Positions 7,610-32,000 of a stretch of 32,000 nt of DNA are shown here, piece by piece. Position 1 is the stretch's first letter. Every line of letters begins with the position of its first letter. Source of the stretch: Trichodesmium erythraeum IMS101 (GTDB lineage Bacteria; Cyanobacteriota; Cyanobacteriia; Cyanobacteriales; Microcoleaceae); NCBI RefSeq assembly GCF_000014265.1, contig NC_008312.1, positions 7,530,001-7,562,000 on the forward strand, written 5' to 3'. The notes beneath the pieces were generated by a model. The model ran no database searches, was not told the DNA's origin, and saw only the letters and a program-made list of their open reading frames with translations. The translations under genes were made by a program, and so were the position numbers.

Positions 7610-8287
7610 ATGATTTGGAAAAAATTTAATCAACCACAACTAAAAATTAAATTTAAACCCCAAATAATTTTGGCAATTATTTCATTCATTTTGGCAGTGG
7701 GAATGCCTATTAGTATTAATAATAAAATTCCTGCACTAGCTAGAACTGAAAAAAACTACGAAAAAAAATTATTTGAAACTGCTCTATCTTTTACTCTATA
7801 CTTTGAAGGTGGATTTAGTAATCATCCAGCAGATAAAGGTGGTAGAACTTACAAAGGAATCTTACAAACTGAATATAATGCCTACCGACGGCGAAGGGGT
7901 TTACCACGATTAGATATTACTCAAATATCTGATGCTGAACTCATAGAAATTTATCAAGATTATTGGGATAATAGTAGGTCAGCTACAATGCATCCCTCTC
8001 TTGCTGTAGTTATGTTTGATACTGCTGTTAATTTTGGTATTAACAACTCAATAACTTTTCTACAACAAGCCTTAGGTTTACCACAAACAGGTATATTTGA
8101 TCCTAAGACTAAGAAAGCATTGGTAAAGGGAAATAATCGAAATACTGCACTGCAAATTATTAATGAAAGGATTATTTATCGTTATAAAAGGGTACAAGAA
8201 GATGCAAGTCAGATGGCTTTTTTTTATGGTTGGTTAGCTCGTGATTATAGTTTGTGGGGGTATGTGCAAAAACTGAAAGATAATTGA
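7610..8287 (+). CDS. Glycoside hydrolase family 108 (N-acetylmuramidase/lysozyme-like) with predicted peptidoglycan-binding C-terminal domain and N-terminal signal anchor
   Basis: 225-aa ORF. It has the GH108 motif FEGGFSNHPADKGGRTYKGI, a hydrophobic N-terminal segment (IILAIISFILAVGMPISI), and a C-terminal LQQALGLPQTGIFDPKTKKAL resembling PG_binding_3. Confidence 0.8.
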   Translation: MIWKKFNQPQLKIKFKPQIILAIISFILAVGMPISINNKIPALARTEKNYEKKLFETALSFTLYFEGGFSNHPADKGGRTYKGILQTEYNAYRRRRGLPRLDITQISDAELIEIYQDYWDNSRSATMHPSLAVVMFDTAVNFGINNSITFLQQALGLPQTGIFDPKTKKALVKGNNRNTALQIINERIIYRYKRVQEDASQMAFFYGWLARDYSLWGYVQKLKDN

Positions 8288-8784
8288 GATGTAAGTATTT
8301 AAATGTTAGTTAAATTCAACACTATTCTCTATCAAATATTTGAATTTTATCAATCATATCTGCCGAAAAAAAATCTCAATAACTTTTAAATTTGCTTCTG
8401 TGAAAATATTCGTGATTTAGGTTGGTGATAATTTAGAATTTTAACTGAAAGATAATTGAGATGTAAGTATTTAAATGTTAGTTAAATTCAACACTATTCT
8501 CTATCAAATATTTGAATTTTATCAATCATATTTGCCTAAAAAAAATCTCGATAACTTTTAAATTTGCTTCCGTGAAAATATTCGTGATTTAGGTTGGTGA
8601 TAATTTAGAATTTTAACTGAAAGATAATTGAGATGTAAGTATTTAAATGTTAGTTAAATTCAACACTATTCTCTATCAAATATTTGAATTTTATCAATCA
8701 TAATTTGCCGAAAAAAAATCTTGATAACTTTTGAATTTGCTTCCGTGAAAATATTCGTGATTTAGGTTGGTGATAATTTAGAAT
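8271..8784. repeat. 172-bp tandem repeat, about 3.0 copies, whose first unit starts inside the 3' end of the GH108 gene
   Basis: AACTGAAAGATAATTGAGATGTAAG recurs at 8271, 8443 and 8615, an exact 172-nt period. The units differ at only a few positions by eye. Confidence 0.95.
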
Positions 8785-9143
8785 ATTATTAGACGCATAA
8801 AAACATGGTAGATAATTTAGATTTATAAACATATAATAAATATAGTTTTTGTAGTTTAAGGACGGCGATAAAGAGTTAAGTATTCCTCTGTGAACTCTGA
8901 GGAGTAAAAACTAGACACTTTTTTTCAACGCACTTTTTTCCACCTCAAAAAGCTAAAGTAAATATCAATCAATGCTTTGATATTTAATCAGCGAGTTATC
9001 ATTAATAGAAACCTAAGTAGTTAACCAGCAAGGCTGTCCACCTAACGCCATAAATATCAAATTAGAAGAACATTCGCGAAAGCAGAACAGACTTCTATCT
9101 CTCTATAAAACCTACTTAAATATTAACTTTAGTTAGCCATATA

Positions 9144-10256
9144 TAGCAATCCCATATTGGTCGCAACAGATATAATAGTAAGAATAACAGATCTAAGAAA
9201 AAGACAAAAAATGAATATTATAGATAAACTAAATGATTTTATTAATCAAACAAAAGAGTCTAAAGAAATTAAAAGGGCCTTGGCCGTAAAAATGACCTTG
9301 TCAGGAAAATCCTACCATGAAGTCAAAGAATTATTAAATGTTTCTCACAGTTTTATTAGTGAATGGAAAAACCAAGCATTATTTCATGGTGTAGAAAGTT
9401 TAAGGCTTCAGTATCAAGGGAGACAAGGTTACTTAAAAACGGTCGAAAAAGAGAAAACAATTGAGTGGTTGAGAGCACAAGATTATCTTAGGTTATCAGA
9501 TTTAAAAAACTACTTACAGGAGCAATATGATGTGGTTTTTGAGTCTAATCAAAGTTACTATAACTTGTTTAAAGAAGCGGGCATAAGTTGGAAAAAAACT
9601 CAAAAAAAGAATCCTGCTAAAAATGATGAATTAGTAGAAGTTAAAAGAAAAGAAATACAGGAATTTTTAGCTAAATGGCAACCAGAAATAGAAACTGGAA
9701 AGCTTACAGTGTTTATGATTGATGAATGTCATCTTCTATGGGGAGACATATTAGGTTATGCTTGGGGAAAAACAGATGAAAGAATAGAAATTGCAATTAA
9801 AAATGAAAAAGAAAGACAGACTTATTATGGAGCTTTAGACTATAAAACCAAGGAATTTCTTGTGCAAGAATATGAGAGTGGAAATACTAAAAATACTATT
9901 GAATTTATTAAATATTTGCAGAAGCAAAGACCGGGCAACAAATTGGCAATATTTTGGGATGGGGCAACTTACCATAACTCTCAAGAATTTCGAGAATATT
10001 TAATGACAATTAATCAATACTTATCAGAAGAAGAATTGTTGATAAATTGTACAAGATTTGCTCCCAATGCTCCGGAGCAAAATCCTGTTGAAGATATTTG
10101 GTTACAAACCAAAAATTTCAGTATTACTTTTTATCATCTTTGCAGTTCTTTTAAAGTAGTTAAGTGGCTATTTAAGTTTTTTGCGGATGGTCAAATATTC
10201 AATTTCCCAAAACTTTTTCAGTATGAAATTTTGCCGCAACCTACTTAGGATTGCTA
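9144..10256 (+). mobile_element. IS630-family (Tc1/mariner-like) insertion sequence, apparently intact
   Basis: Terminal inverted repeats TAGCAATCC (9144..9152) and GGATTGCTA (10248..10256), extendable imperfectly to about 24 nt. They are flanked by TA (9142..9143) and TA (10257..10258), the target duplication typical of IS630. A single DDE transposase ORF fills the element. Confidence 0.85.
9211..10248 (+). CDS. IS630-family DDE transposase
   Basis: N-terminal HTH-like region, then catalytic-type motifs MIDECHLLWGD, IFWDGATYHNS and APEQNPVEDIW (D, D, E, with E about 39 residues after the second D). The ORF track starts at TTG 9157, but ATG 9211 is the more likely start. The stop codon overlaps the right IR. 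Confidence 0.9.
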   Translation: MNIIDKLNDFINQTKESKEIKRALAVKMTLSGKSYHEVKELLNVSHSFISEWKNQALFHGVESLRLQYQGRQGYLKTVEKEKTIEWLRAQDYLRLSDLKNYLQEQYDVVFESNQSYYNLFKEAGISWKKTQKKNPAKNDELVEVKRKEIQEFLAKWQPEIETGKLTVFMIDECHLLWGDILGYAWGKTDERIEIAIKNEKERQTYYGALDYKTKEFLVQEYESGNTKNTIEFIKYLQKQRPGNKLAIFWDGATYHNSQEFREYLMTINQYLSEEELLINCTRFAPNAPEQNPVEDIWLQTKNFSITFYHLCSSFKVVKWLFKFFADGQIFNFPKLFQYEILPQPT

Positions 10257-13283: not shown

Positions 13284-14237
13284 ATGCTTAGAAAATTTAA
13301 GTGGATCGGTAGTTCATTATTATTAACAATAGCACTGAGCATAAATGCTTCAGCCATAAGTATTGGCAAGGTAGCTCAAAATAGAAATGGAATTAAAATA
13401 ATTGCAACTTTCTTGCCAATATATATCTTTACCAAAGGAGTCGCCGGAGAAACTGAAGAGATAGAAATCTTAATTCCTCCGGGAACAGATCCCCACGAAT
13501 ATCAGGGAACACCAGAAAATGCTCGTAGTATTGCACAAGCAGATATTTTAGTAAAAAATGGGTTGGGTTTAGAAGAATTTTTAGAGAAATTAGTCGATAG
13601 TACTGGTAACTCTCAACTACAAAAAATTAATGCTAGCCAAAATATTGAACCTATAGACATGGAAGAAGATGACGATAACCATAACGACCATGACCATGAC
13701 CATGACCATGACCACGACCACAGTCACAAAGAGGGAAACCCTCATGTTTGGTTAGACCCAGTTTTAGCACAGCAACAAGTCAAGAATATTCGCGATGGTT
13801 TAATAAAAGCTAACCCTAATAATGCAACTACTTATCAGGCAAATGCTAGTATTTATCTGGAAAAATTACAGCGACTTGACCAAGAGTTTAAAACTCGTTT
13901 AAAACCTTTCAAAGAATGCAAGTTTATTGTCTTTCACGATGCCTATCCATATCTAGCAAAACGCTATAATTTGCAACAAATAGCAGTTGTAGAATTGCCA
14001 CAAGACAATATTAAGCCTAGGGATATTCAAAGAGTAATAGAGGCGGCTAAAAAATATCAAGTAAAAGGTTTACTAGCGGAAATAGGATTTAATGATAGTA
14101 GAATGCAACAAATTGCTAAAGATATTGGCTTACCAATTAAAAAATTAGATCCAATAAATAGTGGTTTGTTAGACCCAGAACATTATTTCACTGCCATGAG
14201 AAATAATTTAAAAAGTTTAGAGGAAGTTTGTCAGTGA
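13284..14237 (+). CDS. znuA: Zinc ABC transporter substrate-binding protein (cluster 9 / TroA-ZnuA family) with His/Asp-rich loop
   Basis: 317-aa ORF with a signal peptide, the metal-ligand context DPHEY and NPHVWLDP, and the acidic His-rich loop EEDDDNHNDHDHDHDHDHDHSH characteristic of ZnuA. Confidence 0.85.
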   Translation: MLRKFKWIGSSLLLTIALSINASAISIGKVAQNRNGIKIIATFLPIYIFTKGVAGETEEIEILIPPGTDPHEYQGTPENARSIAQADILVKNGLGLEEFLEKLVDSTGNSQLQKINASQNIEPIDMEEDDDNHNDHDHDHDHDHDHSHKEGNPHVWLDPVLAQQQVKNIRDGLIKANPNNATTYQANASIYLEKLQRLDQEFKTRLKPFKECKFIVFHDAYPYLAKRYNLQQIAVVELPQDNIKPRDIQRVIEAAKKYQVKGLLAEIGFNDSRMQQIAKDIGLPIKKLDPINSGLLDPEHYFTAMRNNLKSLEEVCQ

Positions 14238-16301: not shown

Positions 16302-16756
16302 ATATTAAACCTAATCTTATCTATTTTTTTCCCATTTTTATTGGATAACCTGATCATCTGAAGATAAATAAAAATAGTAATAAAATCAGGCTTGCTAAAA
16401 AAGTTTAAGAGTGACAGAAGGGAAGTGGTAATAGATACTTTGGTAACAGTTATAGATGTTAAATTTTCGGCATTTTTTCCTGACCTAACTGGGAAAATAT
16501 CAAGTTAGCAAATATTAATTTAGTAATTTCTTGTTACTTCTTGAAAGTTGAGGAAAACTTAAACTGATCATATATCAGGATTTTCTGAAAAATTAAGTAA
16601 CCTCTCAGTATAGTATTCTAATAATTGCCAAAATCTTTAATCATAGTCTTATGTAAACAAGTGGTAAATTTAATCAAGTTAATCAAGTATTTTTCCTTAT
16701 TTTTTATTAACTTTAAACCCCAATATAGGGTAATCAAATTCTCTTAGATATAAGAA

Positions 16757-16908
16757 TTTTTATTCTTTTATATTTACAGTTTCCTGAATTGCTCTGAAAT
16801 TGAGATACTAAAAACTGACTTCATATTAATGATTTTTATTCTTTTATATTTACAGTTTTCCGAATTGCTCTGAAGTAGAGAGACTGAAAACTAATTTCAT
16901 GTTTTAGC
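16757..16908. repeat. 76-bp tandem duplication (2 copies, diverged)
   Basis: TTTTTATTCTTTTATATTTACAGTTT... occurs at 16757 and again at 16833. The rest of the unit (GAATTGCTCTGAA...ACTGA..TTCAT) is also shared, with one indel and several substitutions. Confidence 0.85.
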
Positions 16909-21992: not shown

Positions 21993-23351
21993 ATGAACAA
22001 AGCTATTACCATTTCTACTAGTATTTCTACTACTTACATGGTAGAAGGGAAAATTATAGACAAAAAGACGAAAAAGGGAGTTGTCGATCTCCGTGTATTC
22101 GTTTATGACAAAGATCCAGGATTGGATGATTTCCTGGGAATTGCTGTCACTGACAAAGAGGGTGTATTCAAGCTTAGTTTTGATGCCTCTCAATTTAGAT
22201 TCTTTAAAGTATTGGATAGAAATCCGGATTTGTATTTTATTGTTAAGGATGCAGGACATGAATTGCTGAATACAGAGAATAATGTTATTAAGAATGCTTC
22301 TGAAAGCACTCCGGCTATCAATCTAGAAGTGGATTTGTCTGGGGATCTATTGCGCGAAGAAGTCAAAGAAGTTGCCGTGGATGGATGGGTTGGAGGATTT
22401 GAGCAATCTAACCCAGCTTTTGCTTATCCAAGTCCTGATCTTAGTTCTTTGCCTATTCTAGATAACATGGACAACATTGGAAAACTTGAGCGCGGGCAAA
22501 AAATTCTTTGGCCTGAGTTTAGTTGGAAAACTGAACCAGATCAAGAGGATGGAAAACGTTGTTATCGGATGTTTGCTCCTGATATTTCTAGATTAGGATA
22601 TACCAATGATGGAAGAATTTATTCTATTATATGCCCACAACAAGGATATTCTTCTCCTACACTTGGCTCTTTTAATGTTGAGGTGACCGTGACTGGAAAT
22701 AGAGGATGGGTTAATGAGGAGACTAGGGAGTTGGCTGCAGACATGGGGGTTGTTGGGAAAATTTGGTTTGGTCCAAGTGGTAAAGATAATAGTTTTGTAC
22801 AAAGATTAAAAGGTTATTTTGAACGCAAGAACTTGAGTTTCCCACTCAACAAAGATAATGCGATTCAAGTAAAAACACATGTACCTAATGATCCCGGTCA
22901 ACCAACATTCAAAATTGCTCAAGGATCAAGTACCAGATTCCCAATTCCTGAATTTGCCAAACACGAAGGGATAGCATGGGCTTTGGGTCATATTGAAGTG
23001 CAAATTGGAGAGCTCATAGAAACTGGCCAGGAAGAAGTTGACCGATTTAATCGGTTCATCTTGGATATCTTCAATTTAGCATCTGGAAATATGCTTAAAA
23101 ATGGTAATATCCTTACCTGGAATCTGTGGTTTAATGCGCCTGAATTAGTGGATGTTGATGAATGGCAAGGACATGCAGAGTTGTGGCGTAAATCTCTCCA
23201 AGCTGACCATGGTAAGACCCCGGAAGGACCTGGTACTGTCTCTAAATATTATGATGGCACCGAATTCCACCCTATAAAAGAACTATTGCTAGAAGAGCTA
23301 CCTAAAGTAAAAGCTTTCATTGCGGAATACATAGAAGGTGCTACAAGTTAA
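21993..23351 (+). CDS. Hypothetical protein with N-terminal transthyretin-like / carboxypeptidase-regulatory-like beta-sandwich domain
   Basis: 452-aa ORF. Residues about 17-85 (VEGKIIDKKTKKGVVDLRVFVYDKDPGLDDFLGIAVTDKEGVFKLSF) fit the transthyretin-like pattern. I recognise no family in the remaining roughly 360 aa. Confidence 0.6.
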   Translation: MNKAITISTSISTTYMVEGKIIDKKTKKGVVDLRVFVYDKDPGLDDFLGIAVTDKEGVFKLSFDASQFRFFKVLDRNPDLYFIVKDAGHELLNTENNVIKNASESTPAINLEVDLSGDLLREEVKEVAVDGWVGGFEQSNPAFAYPSPDLSSLPILDNMDNIGKLERGQKILWPEFSWKTEPDQEDGKRCYRMFAPDISRLGYTNDGRIYSIICPQQGYSSPTLGSFNVEVTVTGNRGWVNEETRELAADMGVVGKIWFGPSGKDNSFVQRLKGYFERKNLSFPLNKDNAIQVKTHVPNDPGQPTFKIAQGSSTRFPIPEFAKHEGIAWALGHIEVQIGELIETGQEEVDRFNRFILDIFNLASGNMLKNGNILTWNLWFNAPELVDVDEWQGHAELWRKSLQADHGKTPEGPGTVSKYYDGTEFHPIKELLLEELPKVKAFIAEYIEGATS

Positions 23352-23427: not shown

Positions 23428-23464
23428 CTAAAACCTAAAACCTAAAACCTAAGACCTAACACAC
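23428..23464. repeat. Heptamer tandem array CCTAA(A/G/C)A, about 5 units (STRR-like)
   Basis: CTAAAACCTAAAACCTAAAACCTAAGACCTAACACAC ends 4 nt before the stop codon of the first TPR-CHAT gene. Confidence 0.9.
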
Positions 23465-23467
23465 TGA

Positions 23468-26400
23468 CTAACTCAACCCTGCACAAATAAACCCACTCCA
23501 ATACGCTGGATGCTCAAAGGGGTGTTGTTTTTTACAAGCTGCTTTCAGGTACTTATTCTTAGTATTAAAAATACGCTCATAAATAGCTACAAGTTTTTCC
23601 CGCTCCTCCTCTAACTCCTGATATTCCACGGAACTTTTGGTATAACTATCACGTCTGGGTTCTATTTCCTGAAGTTGCTTAGATGTGACTTCTAACTTCT
23701 CCCCTAATGCTTTTTCTAATTCCTTTTTATATTTCTTCTTGAGTTCTTTGCCTGTTAGTTCTCGTAACTGTCGTTGTCCTAGTTGCAATGCCAGAGAACG
23801 ATTTTTTCCTTCTTGGCGCAGTTGGTGATAAAAAATCGAAAATAAACATGTTCCTAAGTCATCTACAGACCACAAACTGCTGATCACACCCCTGGCACCT
23901 GCACATAAAAATCCTGTGTTTAATGTTAATACGTCATCGGAGATTTGCACTTGACCTAAGTTGGTCTCACAATAGTCGATGAATACTTCGTCTAGATCTG
24001 GGAAACGGAAGGCAGGAGATAATAGTTGCCCTAAGGTAAGTCTGCCGTCCGCTAAGACTAATGCTGATTCCATACAGTTGTCTAGGCGAGATTCGCTGTG
24101 ATGGGTTGACAATAACCGTTGTACCTGAGATAATAATAGTATGTAACTGTCTATAGTTGCGGCTTCACCTCGCAGGCGTTGGTGTTCTGGGACTCCATAC
24201 ATTTGGGCTATATATTGCGCTTCATAACTGGAACAAGGTAGGTCGTTGTGAGTGTCTTCTACAATGCCTTGTTTGACTTCCCCTTGAATTTCTTCCCGTT
24301 GGGTACAAAAGTCTAGAATTTGGCAACTGGCCAGGGTGCGGATACGGAAACGGTCACCTAGATATTTGTTTTCTCCTGACTCTGCTACTGGCATTGCGTT
24401 CCAAGGGAGAAAGTGCAAGGATAAATGGGGAATTAATATCAATTCTTCAATGTCTTGAAGATAAGATTTGCATAATTCCTCTAATTTTAACTTCTTACTT
24501 ACATCCTGTAAAAATTCAGGCATCTGTTGTTGCCATTCTTCCGGGGATGAGAGGTAAGACTCAAACCATTTTTCCCAAATCCAGTTTTGCAGTTCTTTCT
24601 CCCCCAACCCGCTGTAAATATGAATTTTAACCCCATCTTGTCGCAATACAAATAAATAGGTATTGTCGGTGATAATATAAAAGCTCAAGATGGCTGTGAT
24701 GGGCTCCTGGATTAATGCTTGGATTTTTGGAAATTCCAGTGGGGCAACTTGAATGCCCTCTGCTAATACTCGGTCGAAGCTGCGGATTTTTTTATAGACT
24801 TCCTGCTTTTGAGTCTCTAATTGGGTAATGCGTTTGTTTCTGGTTTCTGTGGCAACTCGCCCCCTAGTTGCTACCGCTAAATATTTCGGCTCTATTCGAC
24901 GTTTTCCTTGTTGTTGTTGTTCCCAAAATTGATGAATTTGCTGTTGAATAGCTTCGTGTTCTTTTAAGGGTTCTTCAACTTCTCCTGGTATTTTACTTTG
25001 GGAGTAGCGATCGTTACTTGCCATTATATCTACTAGCCGTTTGGAGCGAGAATGCTCTACATATTCTAAGGCTTTTTCTATTTGCTCGCTATTCACGTAA
25101 GCTTGTACTATCTTGCGGTAGACATCTATAGACTCTTCGATAATTTCTTGGCGGCGATCATTTTCTTTTGACCAACTCCGGCTGAGTTCCACTGCGGTTA
25201 TGGCTTTTTTATAGTTGTCGGCGGCGAGTTGCCAGTTTTGGTTGTCGAAATATAGGTTGCCTAGGTTGCGGGTGGTTTGGAGGTGGTCGATAGGATATAC
25301 TTCTAGGGTGCGCACTTGCAAAGCTTGTTGGTATGCGACAATGGCGGCTTCAATATTTTGGGCTTGGTCTCCCTTTATTCTCTGACTGTAGGCAGAGCCG
25401 AGATTATTTTGAGTCGTTGCCCAGTCTATGGGGAAGTCTGTTTGGGTGTACACCAGCAAAGCTTGTTGGTATGCGACAATGGCGGCTTCAATATTTTGGG
25501 CTTGGTCTCCCTTTATTCTCTGACTGTAGGCAGAGCCGAGATTATTTTGAGTCGTTGCCCAGTCTATGGGGAAGTCTGTTTGGGTGTACACCAGCAAAGC
25601 TTGTTGGTATGCGGCAATGGCGGCTTCAATATTTTGGGCTTGGTCTCCCCTTTTTCTCTGACTGTAGGCAGAGCCGAGATTATTTTGAGTTGCTGCCCAG
25701 TCTATGGGGAAGTCTGTTTGGGTGTACACCAGCAAAGCTTGTTGGTATGCGACAATGGCGGCTTCAATATTTTGGGCTTGGTCTCCCTTTATTCTGTCAC
25801 TGTAGGCAGAGCCGAGATTATTTTGAGTTGCTGCCCAGTCGATGGGGAAGTCTGTTTGGGTGTACACCAGCAAAGCTTGTTGGTATGCGGCAATGGCGGC
25901 TTCAATATTTTGGGCTTGGTCTCCCCTTATTCTGTTACTGCAGGCATAGCCAAAATTATTTAGAGTTGCTACCCATTTCATGGGGAAGTCACTTTGGGTG
26001 CGCACCAGCAAGGCTTTTTGGAATGCAGCAATGGCGGCTTCAATATTTTCGGCTTGGTCTCCCATTACTCTCTGAGCGTAGGCAGAGCCGAGATTATTTT
26101 GAGTTGCTGCCCATTTCATCGGGAAGTCAGTTTGGGTGCGCACCAGCAAGGCTTTTTGGAATGCAGCAATGGCAGCTTCCATATTTTGGGCTTTATCTCC
26201 CCTTATTCTCTGAGTGTAGGCAGAGCCGAGATTATTTTGAGTTTGTGCCCATTCCATGGGAAAGTCTGTTTGGGTGTGCACCTGCAAAGCTTGTTTGTAT
26301 GCAGCAATGGCGGCTTCAATATTTTGGGCTTGGTCTCCCATTATTCTGTCTTTGTGGGCAACGCCGATATTTTGTTGAGTTGCTGCCCATTCTATGGGAA

Positions 26401-28333
26401 AGTCTGTTTGGGTGTGTACCTGCAAAGCTTGTTTGTATGCAGTAATGGCGGCTTCAATATTTTGGGCTTGGTCTCCCATTATTCTGTCTTTGTAGGCAAC
26501 GCCGATATTTTGTTGAGTTGCTGCCCATTCTATGGGAAAGTCAGTTTGGGTGTGTACCAGCAAAGCTTGTTCGTATGCAGCAATGGCGGCTTCAATATTT
26601 TGGGTTTTGTCTCCCCTTCTTCTGTTTCTGTAAGCAATGCCGAGATTATTTTGAGTTTGTGCCCATTCCATGGGAAAGTCTGTTTGGGTGTGTACCAGCA
26701 AGGCTTGTTCGTATGCAGCAATAGCCACTTCAATATTTTGGGCTTTGTCTCCCCTTATTCTGTTTCTGTAGGCAATGCCGAGATTATTTTGAGTTGTTGC
26801 CCAGTGGAGGGGAAAGTCAGTTTGGGTGTGTACCAGCAAAGCTTGTTCGTATGCAGCAATAGCCACTTCAATATTTTGGGCTTTGTCTCCCCTTCTTCTT
26901 TTACTGTAGGCAACGCCGAGATTATTTTGAGTTTCTGCCCAGTCCATGGGGAAGTCTGTTTGGGTCCGCACCTGCAAAGCTTGTTCGTAGGCAGCAATGG
27001 CAGTTTCAATATTTTCGGCTTGGTCTCCTCTTTTTCTCTGAGTGTAGCCAATACCGAGATTATTTTGAGTCATTGCCCAGTCCATGGGGAAGTCTGTTTG
27101 GGTCCGCACCAGCAAAGCTTGTTGGAATGCACCAATAGCCGCTTCAATATTTTCGGCTTGGTCTCCCCTTTTTCTCTGAGTATAGGCATAGCCAAGATTA
27201 TTTTGAGTCATTGCCCAGTCAATGGGGAAGTCAGTTTGGGTATATACCAGCAAAGCTTGTTGGAATGCACCAATAGCCGCTTCAATATTTTCGGCTTTGT
27301 CTCCCTTTCTTCTCTGAGTGTAGGCATTGCCGAGATTATTTTGAGTTGTTGCCCAGTCCATGGGGAAGTCTGTTTGGCTGTACACCTGCAAAGCTTTTTG
27401 GAATGCACCAATAGCCGCTTCAATATTTTCGGGTTTCTTTCCCCTTATTCTGTTTCTGTAGGCAATGCCGAGATTATTTTGAGTCATTGCCCAGTCCATG
27501 GGGAAGTCTGTTTGGGTCCGCACCAGCAAAGCTTGTTGGAATGCACCAACGGCCGCTTCAATATTTTGAGCTTTGTTTCCCTTTCTTCTCTGAGTGTAGG
27601 CAATGCCGAGATTATTTTGAGTCATTGCCCAGTCCATGGGGAAGTCTGTTTGGGTCCGCACCAGCAAAGCTTGTTCGTATGCAGCAATAGCGACTTCAAT
27701 ATTTTCGGCTTGGTCTCCCCTTATTCTCTGAGTGTAGTCAATACCGAGATTATTTTGAATAGCCGCCCAACTTTTCCGGTGACTCTTATATGTCAAAACT
27801 TTTAGCACTACTTCACAACCGGCAATACTAATTTCCATATTGTTGGCTTTGCTGCCCAGAGGAAATTGCCAGATCAGGTTACTGAACTCACCAATATCTA
27901 TAGCAATGTCTTTTGCTAGATCCGCCTCCACTTCAGAAAATTTAGCAGTTGCCCAGTTTTGCAATATCTCAGCAAAGTGATCATCAAGTTTATCTAAGTT
28001 TTGCTGTAGGAGTGGGTAGACAACTTTCGAGTCACCATTACTTTCTGCAGTTGCCTGCAATACTTCCATCAAAAAGTCTAAATATTCTGCCGATGAGTAA
28101 TGAGTTGAGGGAGAATATTCTGAAGTTTCTAGTATTTCTGCAAGCTGACTCCTGAGATGGCGTAAAAAATTAGGAGCTGCTGCGAATTGTTGTGCACAAA
28201 GTTCCATTGTTTCGAGTAACCCTTCATCTACCAACTCTTGGTTGGCTTCGAGGATTTTTTCTACCTCACCGTTGGGGGAACTTAGCAGTTGCTGGATGAG
28301 GTTGATATATGCTTCTCTGGGTTTTTTGTCCAT
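23468..28333 (-). CDS. Giant TPR-like repeat / CHAT-domain (caspase-like clan CD peptidase) protein
   Basis: 1621 aa. It has an N-terminal module of about 185 aa (AYINLIQQLLSSPNGEVEKILEANQELVDEGL, common in cyanobacterial TPR/CHAT proteins), then 18 near-identical 46-aa helical repeats plus one degenerate repeat, a charged linker, and a C-terminal CHAT pattern (LLSTHH ... LVLADG ... EVFIDYCET ... GFLCAGARGVISSLWSVDD ... HPAYWSGFICAG). Confidence 0.9.
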   Translation of the reverse strand: MDKKPREAYINLIQQLLSSPNGEVEKILEANQELVDEGLLETMELCAQQFAAAPNFLRHLRSQLAEILETSEYSPSTHYSSAEYLDFLMEVLQATAESNGDSKVVYPLLQQNLDKLDDHFAEILQNWATAKFSEVEADLAKDIAIDIGEFSNLIWQFPLGSKANNMEISIAGCEVVLKVLTYKSHRKSWAAIQNNLGIDYTQRIRGDQAENIEVAIAAYEQALLVRTQTDFPMDWAMTQNNLGIAYTQRRKGNKAQNIEAAVGAFQQALLVRTQTDFPMDWAMTQNNLGIAYRNRIRGKKPENIEAAIGAFQKALQVYSQTDFPMDWATTQNNLGNAYTQRRKGDKAENIEAAIGAFQQALLVYTQTDFPIDWAMTQNNLGYAYTQRKRGDQAENIEAAIGAFQQALLVRTQTDFPMDWAMTQNNLGIGYTQRKRGDQAENIETAIAAYEQALQVRTQTDFPMDWAETQNNLGVAYSKRRRGDKAQNIEVAIAAYEQALLVHTQTDFPLHWATTQNNLGIAYRNRIRGDKAQNIEVAIAAYEQALLVHTQTDFPMEWAQTQNNLGIAYRNRRRGDKTQNIEAAIAAYEQALLVHTQTDFPIEWAATQQNIGVAYKDRIMGDQAQNIEAAITAYKQALQVHTQTDFPIEWAATQQNIGVAHKDRIMGDQAQNIEAAIAAYKQALQVHTQTDFPMEWAQTQNNLGSAYTQRIRGDKAQNMEAAIAAFQKALLVRTQTDFPMKWAATQNNLGSAYAQRVMGDQAENIEAAIAAFQKALLVRTQSDFPMKWVATLNNFGYACSNRIRGDQAQNIEAAIAAYQQALLVYTQTDFPIDWAATQNNLGSAYSDRIKGDQAQNIEAAIVAYQQALLVYTQTDFPIDWAATQNNLGSAYSQRKRGDQAQNIEAAIAAYQQALLVYTQTDFPIDWATTQNNLGSAYSQRIKGDQAQNIEAAIVAYQQALLVYTQTDFPIDWATTQNNLGSAYSQRIKGDQAQNIEAAIVAYQQALQVRTLEVYPIDHLQTTRNLGNLYFDNQNWQLAADNYKKAITAVELSRSWSKENDRRQEIIEESIDVYRKIVQAYVNSEQIEKALEYVEHSRSKRLVDIMASNDRYSQSKIPGEVEEPLKEHEAIQQQIHQFWEQQQQGKRRIEPKYLAVATRGRVATETRNKRITQLETQKQEVYKKIRSFDRVLAEGIQVAPLEFPKIQALIQEPITAILSFYIITDNTYLFVLRQDGVKIHIYSGLGEKELQNWIWEKWFESYLSSPEEWQQQMPEFLQDVSKKLKLEELCKSYLQDIEELILIPHLSLHFLPWNAMPVAESGENKYLGDRFRIRTLASCQILDFCTQREEIQGEVKQGIVEDTHNDLPCSSYEAQYIAQMYGVPEHQRLRGEAATIDSYILLLSQVQRLLSTHHSESRLDNCMESALVLADGRLTLGQLLSPAFRFPDLDEVFIDYCETNLGQVQISDDVLTLNTGFLCAGARGVISSLWSVDDLGTCLFSIFYHQLRQEGKNRSLALQLGQRQLRELTGKELKKKYKKELEKALGEKLEVTSKQLQEIEPRRDSYTKSSVEYQELEEEREKLVAIYERIFNTKNKYLKAACKKQHPFEHPAYWSGFICAGLS
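25311..27770 (-). repeat. Intragenic 138-bp (46-codon) tandem array, about 18 units
   Basis: CACCAGCAAAGCTTG recurs with an exact 138-nt period (e.g. 25451 and 25589). Units 25321..25458 and 25459..25596 look identical by eye. Confidence 0.95.
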
Positions 28334-28364
28334 TTTTAGTTATTAGTTGGTTGATATCTTTTCT

Positions 28365-28399
28365 TAGGTGTTAGGTATTAGGTGTTAGGTATTAGGTGT
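28365..28399. repeat. Heptamer tandem array TAGGT(G/A)T x5, the reverse complement of the CCTAACA-type unit
   Basis: TAGGTGTTAGGTATTAGGTGTTAGGTATTAGGTGT lies 32 nt upstream of the first TPR-CHAT start codon, in inverted orientation relative to the arrays at 23428 and 28974. Confidence 0.9.
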
Positions 28400-28772
28400 T
28401 AAATTTTCAGCTTTTGTGCATTTAAACCACTAATTCTTGTATACCTCAGTTCAGATAAAAAAACCTTCTCAATTCTAAATTCTCAGACTTGGCCACGGAT
28501 ATCAACATAAGAGAACAGACAAGATAAGTTGATCTCCATCTCCTGATGTCCTATTTTGAGATGGCTTGGGGGTGTTGATGGCCTTCCTAGTCCCAGCTCT
28601 CAAGATATTCCTCTTCCCAATAACAATATTTTACACAATTAAACAGCAGAAATTTGCGATCGCTTCCCAGAGTACATTCATTGTTTCCTTTAATTGTTAA
28701 ATTGATGAATTTGAGCCATGTAAAATTATTAATTATTTGTTCTAATATATTTACGGGTTAAACCGGGGATAG

Positions 28773-28973: not shown

Positions 28974-29010
28974 CTAAAACCTAAAACCTAAAACCTAAAA
29001 CCTAACACAC
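28974..29010. repeat. Heptamer tandem array CCTAA(A/C)A, about 5 units, paralogous copy of 23428..23464
   Basis: CTAAAACCTAAAACCTAAAACCTAAAACCTAACACAC ends 4 nt before the stop of the second TPR-CHAT gene. It differs from the first copy by a single base by eye. Confidence 0.9.
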
Positions 29011-29013
29011 TGA

Positions 29014-32000
29014 CTAACTCAACCCTGCACAAATAAACGCACTCCAATACGCCGGATGCTCAAAGGGATGTTCTTTTTTACAAGCTGCTTTCAGGTACTT
29101 ATTCTTAGTATAAAAAATACGCTCATAAATAGCTACAAGTTTTTCCCGCTCCTCCTCTAACTCCTGATATTCCACGGAACTTTTGGTATAACCATCACGT
29201 CTGCGTTCTATTTCCTGAAGTTGCTTATATGCCGGTTCCAACTTTTCATCTAACGAACTTTCTAACTCCTTTTTATATTTCTTCTTGAGTTCTTTGCCCG
29301 TTAATTCTCGTAACTGTCGTTGTCCTAGTTGCAATGCCAGAGAACGATTTTTTCCTTCTTGGCGCAGTTGGTGATAAAAAATCGAAAATAAACATGTTCC
29401 TAAGTCATCTACAGACCACAAACTGCTGATCACACCCCTGGCACCTGCACATAAAAACCCTGTGTTTAATGTTAACACGTCATCGGAGATTTGCACTCGA
29501 CCGAAATTGGTCTCACAACAGTCGATGAATACTTCATCTAGATCTGGGAAACGGAAGGCAGGAGATAATAGTTGCCCTAAAGTAAGTCTGCCGTCCGCTA
29601 ACACTAACGCTGACTCCATACAGTTGTCTATGCGAGATTGAGCGTGATGGGTTGACAATAACCGTTGTACCTGAGATAATAATAGTTTGTAACTGTCTAT
29701 AGTTGCGGCTTCACCTCGCAGGCGTTGGTGTTCTGGGACTCCATACATTTGGGCTATATATTGCGCTTCATAACTGGAACAAGGTAGGTCGTTGTGAGTG
29801 TCTTCCACAATGCCTTGTTTGACTTCCCCTTGAATTTCTTCCCGTTCGGTACAAAAGTCTAGAATTTGGCAACTGGCCAGGGTGCGGATACGGAAACGGT
29901 CACCTAGATATTTGTCTTCTCCTGACTCTGCTACTGGCATTGCGTTCCAAGGGAGAAAGTGCAAGGATAAATGGGGAATTAATATCAATTCTTCAATGTC
30001 TTGAAGATAAGATTTGCATAATTCCTCTAATTTTAACTTCTTACTTACATCCTGTAAAAATTCAGGCATCTGTTGTTGCCATTCTTCCCGGGATGAGAGG
30101 TAAGACCCAAACCATTTTTCCCAAATCCAGTTTTGCAGTTCTTTAAGCCCCAACCCTTCGTAAGTATGAACTTTTACCCCATCTTGTCGCAATACAAATA
30201 AATAGGTATCGTCGGTGATAGTATAAAAACTCAATATCGCTGTGGTGGGCTCCTGGATCAATGCTTGAATTTTTGGAAATTCCAGTGGGGCAACTTGAAT
30301 TCCCTCTGCTAATACCCGGTCGAAGCTGCGGATTTTTTTATAAACTTCCTGCTTTTTGGCTTCTAATTCCCCAATGCGTTTGTTTCTGGCTTCTGTCGCA
30401 GCTCGCCCCCTAGTTGCTACAGCTAAATCTTTCGACTCTATTTGACTGCCCTTTTGTTGTTGTTCCCAAAGTTGATTAATTTGCTGTTGAATAGCTTCGT
30501 GTTCTTTTAACCGTTCTTCAACTTCTCCTGGCATTTCACCTTGGGAGTAGCGATCGTTACTTGCCATTATGTCTACTAACCGTTTGGAGCGAGAACGCTC
30601 TACATATTCTAAGGCTTTTTCTATTTGATCGCTATTCACGTAAGCTTGTACTATCTTGCGGTAGACACCTATAGACTCTTCGATGATTTCTTGGCGACGG
30701 TCGTCATCTTTTGACCAACTGCGGCTGAGTTCCACTGCGGTTATGGCTTTTTTATAGTTGTCGGCGGCGAGTTGCCAGTTTTGGTTGTCGAAATATAGGT
30801 TGCCTAGGTTGTTGGTGGTTTGGAGGTGGTTGATGGGGTCTGCTTCTAGGGTGCGCACCAGCAAAGCTTGTTCGTATGCAGCAATGGCGGCTTCAATATT
30901 TTCGGCTTTGTCTCCCCTTATTCTGTAAATGTAGGCAAGGCCGAGATTATTTTGAGTTTGTGCCCATTCCATGGGGAAGTCAGTTTGGGTGCGCACCAGC
31001 AAAGCTTGTTGGTATGCAGCAATGGCAGCTTCAATATTTTCGGCTTTGTCTCCCCTTATTCTGTCACTGTAGGCAATGCCGAGATTATTTTGAGTTTGTG
31101 CCCAGTCGATGGGGAAGTCAGTTTGGGTGCGCACCTGCAAAGCTTGTTCGTATGCAGCAATGGCGGCTTCAATATTTGCAGCAATGGCGGCTTCAATATT
31201 TTCGGCTTTGTCTCCCCTTATTCTGTCACTGTAGGCAAGGCCGAGATTATTTTGAGCTGCTGCCCAGTTGATGGGGAAGTCAGTTTGGGTGTACACCAGC
31301 AAAGCTTGTTGGAATGCAGCAATGGCAGCTTTAATATTTTGGGCTTTGTCTCCCCTTATTCTGTCACTGTAGGCATTGCCGAGATTATTTTGAGTCATTG
31401 CCCATTCCATGGGGAAGTCAGTTTGGGTGCGCACCAGCAAAGCTTGTTGGTATGCAGCAATGGCAGCTTCAATATTTTCGGCTTTGTCTCCCCTTATTCT
31501 GTCACTGTAGGCAATGCCGAGATTATTTTGAGTTCTTGCCCAGTTGATGGGGAAGTCAGTTTGGGTGTACACCAGCAAAGCTTGTTGGTATGCAGCAATG
31601 GCAGCTTCAATATTTTCGGCTTTGTCTCCCCTTATTCTGTCTCTGTAGGCAATGCCGAGATTATTTTGAGTATTTGCCCAGTCCATGGGGAAGTCAGTTT
31701 GGGTGCGCACCAGCAAAGCTTGTTGGAATGCAGCAATGGCAGCTTCAATATTTTCGGCTTGGTCTCCCTTTATTCTGTTACCGTAGGCAGAGCCGAGATT
31801 ATTTTGAGTATTTGCCCAGTCCATGGGGAAGTCAGTTTGGGTGCGCACCAGCAAAGCTTGTTGGCATGCAGCAATGGCGGCTTCAATATTTTCGGCTTTG
31901 TCTCCCCTTATTCTGTTTCTGTAGGCAGCGCCGAGATTATTTTGAGTCATTGCCCAGTCCATGGGGAAGTCAGTTTGGGTGTACACCAGCAAAGCTTGTT
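29014..32000 (-). CDS. Second TPR-like repeat / CHAT-domain protein, 5' end outside the window (partial)
   Basis: The frame stays open to the window edge (the ORF-track TTG start at 31992 is an artefact, since the preceding codons read QA). At least 8 full 46-aa repeats plus one degenerate repeat are visible, followed by a linker and a CHAT domain colinear with gene 1 (LLSTHH, FIDCCET, HPAYWSAFICAG). Confidence 0.9.
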   Translation of the reverse strand, partial: QALLVYTQTDFPMDWAMTQNNLGAAYRNRIRGDKAENIEAAIAACQQALLVRTQTDFPMDWANTQNNLGSAYGNRIKGDQAENIEAAIAAFQQALLVRTQTDFPMDWANTQNNLGIAYRDRIRGDKAENIEAAIAAYQQALLVYTQTDFPINWARTQNNLGIAYSDRIRGDKAENIEAAIAAYQQALLVRTQTDFPMEWAMTQNNLGNAYSDRIRGDKAQNIKAAIAAFQQALLVYTQTDFPINWAAAQNNLGLAYSDRIRGDKAENIEAAIAANIEAAIAAYEQALQVRTQTDFPIDWAQTQNNLGIAYSDRIRGDKAENIEAAIAAYQQALLVRTQTDFPMEWAQTQNNLGLAYIYRIRGDKAENIEAAIAAYEQALLVRTLEADPINHLQTTNNLGNLYFDNQNWQLAADNYKKAITAVELSRSWSKDDDRRQEIIEESIGVYRKIVQAYVNSDQIEKALEYVERSRSKRLVDIMASNDRYSQGEMPGEVEERLKEHEAIQQQINQLWEQQQKGSQIESKDLAVATRGRAATEARNKRIGELEAKKQEVYKKIRSFDRVLAEGIQVAPLEFPKIQALIQEPTTAILSFYTITDDTYLFVLRQDGVKVHTYEGLGLKELQNWIWEKWFGSYLSSREEWQQQMPEFLQDVSKKLKLEELCKSYLQDIEELILIPHLSLHFLPWNAMPVAESGEDKYLGDRFRIRTLASCQILDFCTEREEIQGEVKQGIVEDTHNDLPCSSYEAQYIAQMYGVPEHQRLRGEAATIDSYKLLLSQVQRLLSTHHAQSRIDNCMESALVLADGRLTLGQLLSPAFRFPDLDEVFIDCCETNFGRVQISDDVLTLNTGFLCAGARGVISSLWSVDDLGTCLFSIFYHQLRQEGKNRSLALQLGQRQLRELTGKELKKKYKKELESSLDEKLEPAYKQLQEIERRRDGYTKSSVEYQELEEEREKLVAIYERIFYTKNKYLKAACKKEHPFEHPAYWSAFICAGLS
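30854..32000 (-). repeat. Intragenic 138-bp tandem array of the second TPR-CHAT gene (truncated by the window)
   Basis: Same unit family as 25311..27770. One unit carries a 24-bp in-frame internal duplication (31154..31201). Confidence 0.9.

Follow-up and report, generated by a model that had tools for sequence, protein, structure and literature searches.

The window analysed here is a 32,000-nucleotide (nt) stretch of the genome of Trichodesmium erythraeum IMS101 (RefSeq assembly GCF_000014265.1, contig NC_008312.1, positions 7,530,001 to 7,562,000 of the forward strand), with a G+C content of 35%. Two tandem paralogues, here called gene A and gene B, lie on its minus strand. Gene A is a complete open reading frame (ORF) of 1621 codons, and its product consists of a helical N-terminal domain, a long array of 46-residue units related to the tetratricopeptide repeat (TPR) between two degenerate cap units, a linker, and a caspase-like CHAT domain at the C-terminus; gene B is cut by the end of the window (Table 1). 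The array of gene A is the main subject of this study. Its units are kept alike in DNA by concerted evolution, and their amino-acid diversity is concentrated in a few columns, the most variable of which fall on one face of the first helix of the modelled unit. The coding strand of the array is the minus strand, within gene A; ORFs of up to 603 amino acids (aa) that run over it on the plus strand were rejected as genes, being antisense shadows of the stop-free repeat.

Table 1. Features of the two TPR-CHAT genes in the window (positions are those of the window; aa numbers are those of the gene A protein).
Feature	Position (nt)	Strand	Description	Basis
Gene A	23468-28333	minus	complete ORF, 1621-aa TPR-CHAT protein	ORF list, translation, Pfam
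N-terminal helical domain	27923-28333	minus	aa 1-137	conserved in 105 cyanobacterial proteins; helical in AlphaFold model
N-terminal degenerate cap unit	27785-27922	minus	aa 138-183 (DLAKDIAIDIGEFSNLIWQFPLGSKANNMEISIAGCEVVLKVLTYK)	homologues match the unit hidden Markov model (HMM) in register; helices H137-156 and H162-179 (model)
Array	25301-27784	minus	18 units in head-to-tail order, each of 138 nt / 46 aa; aa 184-1011	Tandem Repeats Finder (TRF), unit table, identity matrix
QQNIG pair, units A09/A10	26267-26404 and 26405-26542	minus		identity matrix, column table
Two consecutive units of identical DNA	25318-25613	minus	296 nt in all	exact 158-nt match at offset 138
C-terminal degenerate cap unit	25163-25300	minus	aa 1012-1057 (VYPIDHLQTTRNLGNLYFDNQNWQ...)	modelled helical, high confidence
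Linker/middle region	24461-25162	minus	aa 1058-1291; long helices, then a small beta-sheet	AlphaFold model 2, mixed confidence
CHAT domain (caspase-like, clan CD)	23477-24460	minus	aa 1292-1619; candidate dyad His1412 / Cys1455	Pfam PF12770
Gene B	29014-32000	minus	tandem paralogue, truncated by the end of the window; array from about 30844 to 32000 with at least 8 units	
24-nt internal duplication in gene B	31153-31201	minus	8 aa, NIEAAIAA; gives one 54-aa unit	TRF period 24, 2.0 copies, 100% match; translation

TRF reports the gene A array as a single tract from 25306 to 27758, with a period of 138 nt, 17.8 copies, 89% matches, 0% indels and a score of 3219. A preliminary description of this DNA had claimed about 18 head-to-tail units with an exact 138-nt period between 25311 and 27770, and both the period and the copy number hold, the limits being within about 15 nt of those found here. 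The motifs quoted in it are a minus-strand reading, although the strand was left unstated. In the D-F-P register, array unit 1 has no DFP start and unit 18 ends in TLE. The 46-residue period is longer not only than the 34-aa TPR, as had been pointed out, but also than the units of the 42-aa TPR class. Most units of the array are unique, with 82-92% identity. The two units at 25321-25458 and 25459-25596, which had looked identical, indeed share 100% nt identity, and the two QQNIG-variant units, said to form another near-identical pair, are 98% identical in nucleotides and differ by two amino acids. Units A14-A17 each share 91% identity with the unit that follows, and the identity of the whole array to itself at an offset of 46 residues is 81%. 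The best 138-aa stretch is 94% identical at this offset, which places the array above the threshold (>85% over at least 100 aa) by which Dyrka 2014 defines repeats of high internal conservation (HIC). The mean nt identity of adjacent units is 0.897, compared with 0.850 ± 0.008 in shuffled unit orders, 0 of 20,000 of which reach the observed value, and nt identity between units drops with their distance (Mantel rho −0.32; 5/5000). The impression that neighbouring units are more alike than distant ones is thus borne out.

Within the array, exact matches of 158, 102, 87, 82, 81 and 70 nt join units that are one, two, three or four places apart, and runs of such length are not expected by chance at a divergence of about 13%. 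The arrays of genes A and B share no identical tract of 50 nt or longer; homogenisation therefore takes place mainly within an array. The array evolves in concert, by duplication and deletion in unit register and by intra-array gene conversion. The 296-nt tract of two identical units is its most recent duplication or conversion and, together with the exact matches at offsets of one to four units, agrees with the recent unit duplication that had been proposed. A change of copy number can be followed in a homologue from Microcystis aeruginosa. Two of its alleles (P0087 and P0263; 1326 and 1280 aa, in one cluster at 90% identity) are 100% identical over their aligned residues, the sole difference being one exact 46-aa unit, and the unit at the junction is a chimera of its neighbours. 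Such a junction is what slippage or unequal recombination leaves behind when it takes place in unit register. Clusters of homologues with degenerate repeats (internal identity about 0.5) are constant in length across many strains, which fits an instability that depends on homology between units.

Comparison of the 25 units of genes A and B reveals a conserved scaffold. Fourteen columns (D1, F2, P3, W6, N12, G14, R20, G23, N28, A32, A35, A39, L40 and V42) are invariant in 25/25 units, in line with the near-invariant columns of the preliminary description. Column entropy is highest at positions 8, 15, 18, 19 and 5, followed by 43, 21, 34, 22 and 4. The columns named there as variable (5, 8, 15, 18-19 and 21-22) are all variable at this locus, but the list was incomplete, since columns 43, 34 and 4 vary as well. 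An even spread of variation over all columns, which had been named as an outcome that would speak against the proposal, was not found: the minimum numbers of changes per column are over-dispersed (index of dispersion 1.74, P=0.002), and 58% of the amino-acid diversity of the array is contained in ten columns. Unit-to-unit identity falls to 0.27 at the five hypervariable columns, against 0.79 at the others.

The Nei-Gojobori estimates (NG86) are a dN of 0.585 at the seven columns named earlier and a dS of 0.165 over all codons. The resulting dN/dS is about 3.7 (about 3 at the five columns of highest entropy), which is indicative and no formal test, as the columns were picked post hoc for their variability; over the columns outside the ten most variable, dN/dS is 0.44. 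Codons 5, 15, 18 and 19 each have five to seven amino-acid states and zero synonymous pairs. Codon 15 changes at its first two bases only (NNT), with AAT as the family consensus. All of this is indicative of amino-acid change outpacing synonymous change at codons 5, 8, 15, 18 and 19, and less so at codons 4, 21 and 22.

Where do the variable columns lie in the folded unit? An AlphaFold model of aa 1-597 of gene A (model 1; alignment of 18 homologues) reached a mean predicted local distance difference test (pLDDT) score of 90.4 and a predicted template-modelling (TM) score of 0.75, with two helices in each 46-aa unit. In this model helix A spans positions 3-19, a loop positions 20-24 and helix B positions 25-40, and a linker runs from position 41 to position 2 of the next unit. 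Aligned with the 34-residue TPRs of SPINDLY, the unit owes its extra length to about six residues in the A-B loop (R-x-x-G-D-x) and about six in the inter-unit linker (T-Q-T-D-F-P). The TPR consensus residues L7-G8-Y11 and A20-F24-A27 correspond to L13-G14-Y17 and A32-Y/F36-A39, which are invariant or nearly so, and the consensus W4 and P32 are shifted here to W6 and to P3 of the next unit. The top Foldseek matches are the TPR domains of LGN/Pins with Inscuteable, NuMA or Frmpd4 peptides, at a target-normalised TM-score of at most 0.82. In the nPR nomenclature quoted in PMC5642895 the unit would be a '46PR', and no description of a 46-residue TPR class was found in the literature searched.

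Exposure was approximated by the variability moment on a helical wheel for helices A and B. For helix A the moment is 0.53 (P=0.019) when computed from the locus and 0.63 (P=0.0015) when computed from the family; for helix B the bias is not significant. Positions 4, 8, 11, 12, 15 and 19 make up the variable face of helix A, and positions 3, 6, 10, 13 and 17 (P, W, Q, L and Y) the conserved packing face opposite to it. In the middle of the variable stripe sits a near-invariant pair, N11-N12. The earlier picture of a conserved scaffold with variable surface columns is supported by the model, in which the hypervariable columns are predicted to share one face of helix A, opposite W6, Q10, L13 and Y17. 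In TPR domains it is the A helices that form the inside of the concave groove (PMC5642895). The peptide that lies in the inner groove of LGN is contacted along its main chain by the Asn of every Leu-Gly-Asn triplet, through bidentate hydrogen bonds (PMC3438535). Placed directly after L13-G14, and with Asn as the consensus residue in the family, column 15 occupies the place equivalent to this ligand-contacting Asn of LGN. From the one-sided variation of helix A, the geometry of TPR grooves and this match, we infer with moderate confidence that the stripe of hypervariable residues forms the lining of the inner groove, where it would contact a ligand, most likely an extended polypeptide.

The same pattern recurs throughout a large family. 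Among 8000 candidates scored, more than 4300 are relatives of the full-length gene A protein at E ≤1e-10, and those with names are essentially all 'CHAT domain-containing (tetratricopeptide repeat) proteins' from cyanobacteria that grow as filaments or colonies. In 120 of the 120 best homologues 46 aa is the strongest self-period, many of them with an internal identity of 0.8-0.96. With an HMM built from the gene A array, 111 of these 120 could be cut into units, and entropy was computed for each protein. Columns 8, 18, 19, 15 and 5 are in the six most variable of 99, 92, 83, 75 and 66 of the 111 proteins, respectively, and the column entropies of the family and of the locus are correlated (r=0.80). 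Columns 21-22, variable at the gene A locus, are generally not variable across the family. The quadruplet of residues at columns 8/15/18/19 takes 874 distinct forms among 1211 distinct units. A small residue code like that of the transcription activator-like (TAL) effectors (TALE) was considered and rejected, given these 874 quadruplets in 1211 units and a mutual information between columns of at most 0.28 bits above shuffle. A paralogue of 1669 aa on a contig of the Trichodesmium metagenome-assembled genome (MAG) MAG_R02 (L001, 6806-11815) has 16.6 units of the 138-nt repeat; its N-terminus is different, with ordinary TPRs of about 40 residues, and its array varies strongly only at columns 8, 15, 18 and 19, columns 21-22 being fixed as I-R.

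The partners of the repeat differ between members of the family. The 46-aa repeat is joined to at least two CHAT/linker subtypes. A protein from a complete Moorena genome (P0330) is a stand-alone array of about 600 aa with an N-domain of the gene A type and no CHAT domain, and another (P0379) joins a 47-residue variant of the repeat to a C-terminal TIR domain (TIR_2, E 2e-14), again with no CHAT domain. In the homologue searches with partial queries, the proteins listed appear to be limited to about 1.75 times the length of the query (321/183 for the N-domain, where all 105 homologues have 321 aa or fewer, and 642/368), and their lengths are no quantitative measure of broken genes or of how common arrays without CHAT are. 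These domain combinations suggest that the 46-aa array may be a sensor module that swaps effectors.

In gene A the partner is a CHAT domain. The PF12770 match has 109.3 bits (cut-off 24) and an E value of 3.3e-31, and covers profile positions 19-288 of 289. The only solved relatives of the C-terminal domain by sequence are the Csx29 'CHAT domain protein' chains 8d9g and 7x8a, at E of about 2e-5. In the alignment with Csx29, HH-S-E of gene A stands opposite H-G-E, and C-E-T opposite C-E-T. The residues of these two Csx29 motifs that align with His1412 and Cys1455 are its catalytic residues. H1411, H1412, C1455, E1456 and T1457 are invariant in 10 homologues. By this alignment the CHAT domain of gene A carries an intact His1412/Cys1455 pair and is a predicted protease. 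The repeats are recognised by Pfam as TPR_12 (116.8 bits, cut-off 30.1) and TPR_10 (111.8 bits, cut-off 27.5), and the best TPR_12/TPR_1 stretch in gene A is aa 991-1047. At the other end of the protein, the N-terminal domain has no match in the Pfam copy scanned; it is modelled with a block-mean pLDDT mostly of 65-95 and a low-confidence loop at aa 70-78. The domain opens more than 100 cyanobacterial TPR and TPR-CHAT proteins, at 40-77% identity. The newer accession PF27904.1, which is precomputed on many full-length homologues, may or may not be equal to it.

The second array of the 138-nt unit, in gene B, was found by TRF from 30849 to the window end. The last 610 aa of gene B are 91% identical to gene A in amino acids and 94% in nucleotides, as a mosaic of blocks of 88-99%. 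The first ~40 nt downstream of the two genes are nearly identical, and a heptamer repeat, (GTTAGGT/TTTAGGT)x5 in the minus-strand reading, begins 8 nt past the stop of each (23428-23459 and 28974-29005). Inverted heptamers, (CACCTAA/TACCTAA)x5, lie at 28364-28401, about 30 nt upstream of the ATG of gene A, and on a Trichodesmium MAG contig (L002, 1433-1878) the same heptamer follows a homologous gene in three blocks of about 10-12 copies. The heptamers that flank the CHAT genes may be an element like the short tandemly repeated repetitive (STRR) sequences, or they may serve as a signal for regulation or recombination. In scans for promoters and terminators, nothing exceeded the shuffle expectation.

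Elsewhere in the window, a 452-aa ORF on the plus strand (21993-23351) converges with gene A and has no match in Pfam, NCBIfam or PADLOC. A non-coding 172-bp tandem repeat at 8271-8788 (3.0 copies, 97% identical) is flanked by a GH108 lysozyme-like ORF (7610-8287) and an IS630-type DDE_3 transposase (9157-10248), and an intergenic 76-bp tandem repeat occupies 16756-16900 (1.9 copies, 88% identical). The hexamer tract (GACCAT)x5.8 at 13686-13720 encodes an HDHDHD... run of His and Asp in ORF 13284-14237. Judged by its translation, the product of this ORF looks like a periplasmic metal-binding protein (ZnuA-like), and it is followed by ORFs for an ABC-transporter ATPase and permease, assigned in the same way. 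No CRISPR-like array was present in the TRF output, nor any Cas domain in the neighbouring ORFs that were scanned or translated.

What is the function of such an array? We propose, with a probability of about 0.68, that it is a diversifying, recombination-prone ligand-recognition solenoid of 46-residue TPR-like units, mounted on a caspase-like CHAT protease. The 18-unit solenoid would be the sensor or recognition arm of the 1621-aa TPR-CHAT protein. Duplication, deletion and conversion in unit register keep the DNA of the units alike, and the hypervariable face of helix A would bind the ligand, with its specificity re-assorted by unit shuffling and point substitution. Binding would then gate or target the C-terminal CHAT protease (His1412/Cys1455). 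The steps of this proposal are not equally firm. By analogy with TPR grooves, we have moderate confidence that the variable face is a ligand-binding groove that can be re-assorted by unit shuffling and substitution. With less confidence we suggest that binding could gate or target the protease in a context of non-self recognition, defence or cell death, a step proposed because of the parallel with the HIC repeats of NOD-like receptors (NLRs) and because of the modularity of the effectors, the array being found with different CHAT subtypes, alone, and with TIR.

Several points weigh against this proposal. No ligand, protease activity or phenotype is on record for any family member found. The groove-facing assignment of the variable stripe rests on the helical-wheel calculation and on analogy to TPR geometry. 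Gene conversion breaks the model behind NG86, and the variable columns were chosen after the data had been seen. The AlphaFold model of the C-terminal part (model 2, aa 920-1621) has a pLDDT of 69 as a whole and of less than 50 in the catalytic core, and was not used for the protease. NTPase families (NB-ARC or NACHT) are absent from the Pfam matches of the 1621-aa protein, and the analogy with NLRs is functional only. No near-identical orthologue or allele of the gene A locus was found, and hence no copy-number variation was seen at the locus itself: an exact-sequence look-up of the 1621-aa protein matched no record, a search of genome contigs with the C-terminal 610 aa returned only paralogues or related species (Trichodesmium MAGs at 83-89%, Okeania at 29-44%), and a search of metagenome contigs with the N-domain gave nothing closer than 62%. 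The neighbours of gene A are housekeeping-like (a glycosyltransferase, an aminotransferase, an FAD oxidoreductase and a zinc ABC transporter) and form no defence island; PADLOC matched no known defence family, and NCBIfam was also uninformative. Finally, cyanobacterial CHAT proteases with developmental roles exist, HetF among them (PMC9457339).

These last points lead to the competitor that survives best, unlikely as we consider it, in which the protein is a housekeeping or developmental protease. The array would then be no immune or non-self sensor but a general substrate-recruiting or scaffolding platform of a regulatory CHAT protease like HetF, and its variation the result of relaxed constraint on exposed residues together with array turnover. 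HetF of Anabaena cleaves PatU3, coupling division and differentiation. Regulatory CHAT proteases do operate in filamentous cyanobacteria (HetF; PMC9457339 and PMC8406250); the absence of a defence island around gene A and the negative PADLOC result agree with such a role, and so does the strict length conservation across strains of three clusters with degenerate repeats (clusters 1, 5 and 6). However, relaxed constraint predicts dN close to dS, whereas dN is ~0.59 and dS ~0.17 here, with the same five codons affected in more than 100 proteins and with 874 distinct quadruplets in 1211 units. Tandem paralogues, many paralogues per genome and fusions to TIR or to different CHAT subtypes are also a better fit to a diversifying repertoire.

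It might also be asked whether the array has been assembled correctly, the repeat being real but the number or order of its units wrong through collapse or expansion. The perfect two-unit repetition of 296 nt and several exact matches of 80-100 nt would favour such an error, and contigs of related MAGs do break inside arrays of this type. One Trichodesmium MAG contig (L005) begins inside such an array, another (L002) holds only part of a homologous gene, and the closest N-domain relatives in Trichodesmium MAGs, labelled 'partial' by their source, lie on contigs of 0.8-6 kb that break off after the first one to three units of the array. The warning in the preliminary description that the locus is easy to mis-assemble is therefore justified for its relatives. 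In gene A, however, the frame is intact over 1621 codons with proper caps at both ends, the unique units that make up most of the array would anchor reads longer than about 300 nt, and a related MAG has a comparable array of 16.6 copies, all of which makes an artefact improbable.

Still less can be said for a structural spacer or spring, a solenoid that gives nothing but length or rigidity, in which the likeness of neighbours would be a by-product of slippage and the variable columns simply the surface positions under least constraint, with no specificity. The variable copy number shows that length is loosely fixed, and TPR solenoids can serve as mechanical elements (PMC8944806), but the variation is restricted to a single face of helix A, the equally exposed face of helix B having no significant bias; non-synonymous change exceeds synonymous change at the variable codons; and the conserved Asn-Asn of columns 11-12 stands amid the variable stripe, as in peptide-binding TPR grooves. 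A spacer is accordingly very improbable. Targeted mutagenesis, with the hypervariable codons written by a diversity-generating retroelement (DGR) or the like, is hardly credible and was rejected: DGRs do diversify putative sensors in multicellular cyanobacteria including Trichodesmium (PMC10907252) and the NNT pattern of codon 15 around AAT is of the kind expected, but a reverse transcriptase, a template repeat and a C-type-lectin-fold target are all absent from the window, the variable codons are spread across 18 units and 2.5 kb as against one variable region of about 100 bp, and codons 8, 18 and 19 do not follow the adenine-only pattern.

The proposal of a diversifying recognition solenoid can be carried further, into a conjecture that we offer as a long shot. 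The 46PR arrays might constitute a recombination-programmable code for reading extended polypeptides, one or two residues per unit, through four or five hypervariable positions of helix A set around a fixed Asn-Asn clamp on the peptide backbone. Large repertoires of such arrays, fused to CHAT or TIR effectors in filamentous cyanobacteria, would then be NTPase-less innate immune or allorecognition receptors that trigger proteolysis or cell death upon meeting a phage or non-self protein.

If the recognition solenoid is real, thousands of 'CHAT domain-containing tetratricopeptide repeat proteins' in bloom-forming and filamentous cyanobacteria, Trichodesmium, Microcystis, Nostoc, Moorena and Microcoleus among them, would be diversifying receptor-proteases. 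This would matter for phage defence, for the evolutionary origins of caspase-linked immunity and, in Trichodesmium, for programmed cell death and the collapse of blooms. Columns 5, 8, 15, 18 and 19 make the hypothesis directly testable through residue swaps. Trichodesmium genomes are rich in large CHAT/TPR repeat proteins (bioRxiv 10.1101/2022.04.20.488952), and short-read assemblies systematically break or mis-count such genes, which leaves gene counts of the family and pangenome statistics unreliable without long reads.

The evolutionary regime of the array is already known from other proteins, and the protein family itself is widely annotated and uncharacterised. What appear to be new, in the literature searched, are the 46-residue unit class, the family-wide map of hypervariable columns, and the HIC regime in TPR-CHAT proteins that have no NTPase. 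The closest parallel in evolutionary terms is offered by the TPR, WD and ANK repeats of high internal conservation in fungal and bacterial NLR/STAND proteins (Paoletti 2007; Dyrka 2014, PMC4986451; Dyrka 2020, bioRxiv 10.1101/2020.01.06.895854), in which positive selection acts on the concave face and repeat number is polymorphic (PMC4986451; bioRxiv 10.1101/2020.01.06.895854). In both, the units within one protein are 80-95% identical, unit number changes (here in the Microcystis homologue) and units would be shuffled, a few hypervariable positions show an excess of non-synonymous change (only indicative here) and are predicted to belong to the binding face of helix A, the array and a death or effector domain, CHAT being among those listed, share one polypeptide, and the proteins are enriched in filamentous, multicellular organisms. 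Unlike NLRs, gene A has no NB-ARC or NACHT between repeats and effector, its effector is C-terminal rather than N-terminal, and its unit has 46 residues rather than 42 or 34.

In terms of sequence and structure, the array resembles the 42PR class, the kinesin light chain type of TPR_10/TPR_12. Both are TPR variants with long helices and a helix A of the xxNNLAxxY type, and natural members of the 42PR class can show very high internal identity (Marold et al. 2015), as the gene A array does. The period here is 46 instead of 42, the surplus lying in the loop between helices A and B (R-x-x-G-D-x) and in the linker (T-Q-T-D-F-P). LGN/Pins (PDB 3sf4, 3ro2 and 4wng) is the best structural match, with a target-normalised TM-score of 0.66-0.82 and an L-G-N-A-Y motif in its helix A, and it binds extended peptides in its inner groove through the triplet Asn that corresponds to hypervariable column 15 of gene A. 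LGN differs in being eukaryotic, with eight non-identical units of about 40 residues, fixed partners, no concerted evolution and no protease. Csx29 of the type III-E Craspase (8d9g and 7x8a) resembles gene A in having its TPR region ahead of a CHAT domain at the C-terminus, and its His and Cys motifs align with those of gene A. In contrast to gene A, its TPR region is short and non-repetitive, and it is activated by the Cas7-11/gRAMP-crRNA complex, whereas the TRF output of the window and the neighbouring ORFs scanned or translated hold no CRISPR-Cas. The TAL effectors are comparable by analogy only: they too have long arrays of near-identical units that are recombination-prone and hard to assemble, with few hypervariable residues per unit, but their 34-aa repeats read DNA by a small code, and the gene A family is combinatorial and has the TPR fold. 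Taken together, gene A belongs to the TPR superfamily (clan CL0020) and to the CHAT family, and is neither an NLR, nor a Craspase, nor a DGR target.

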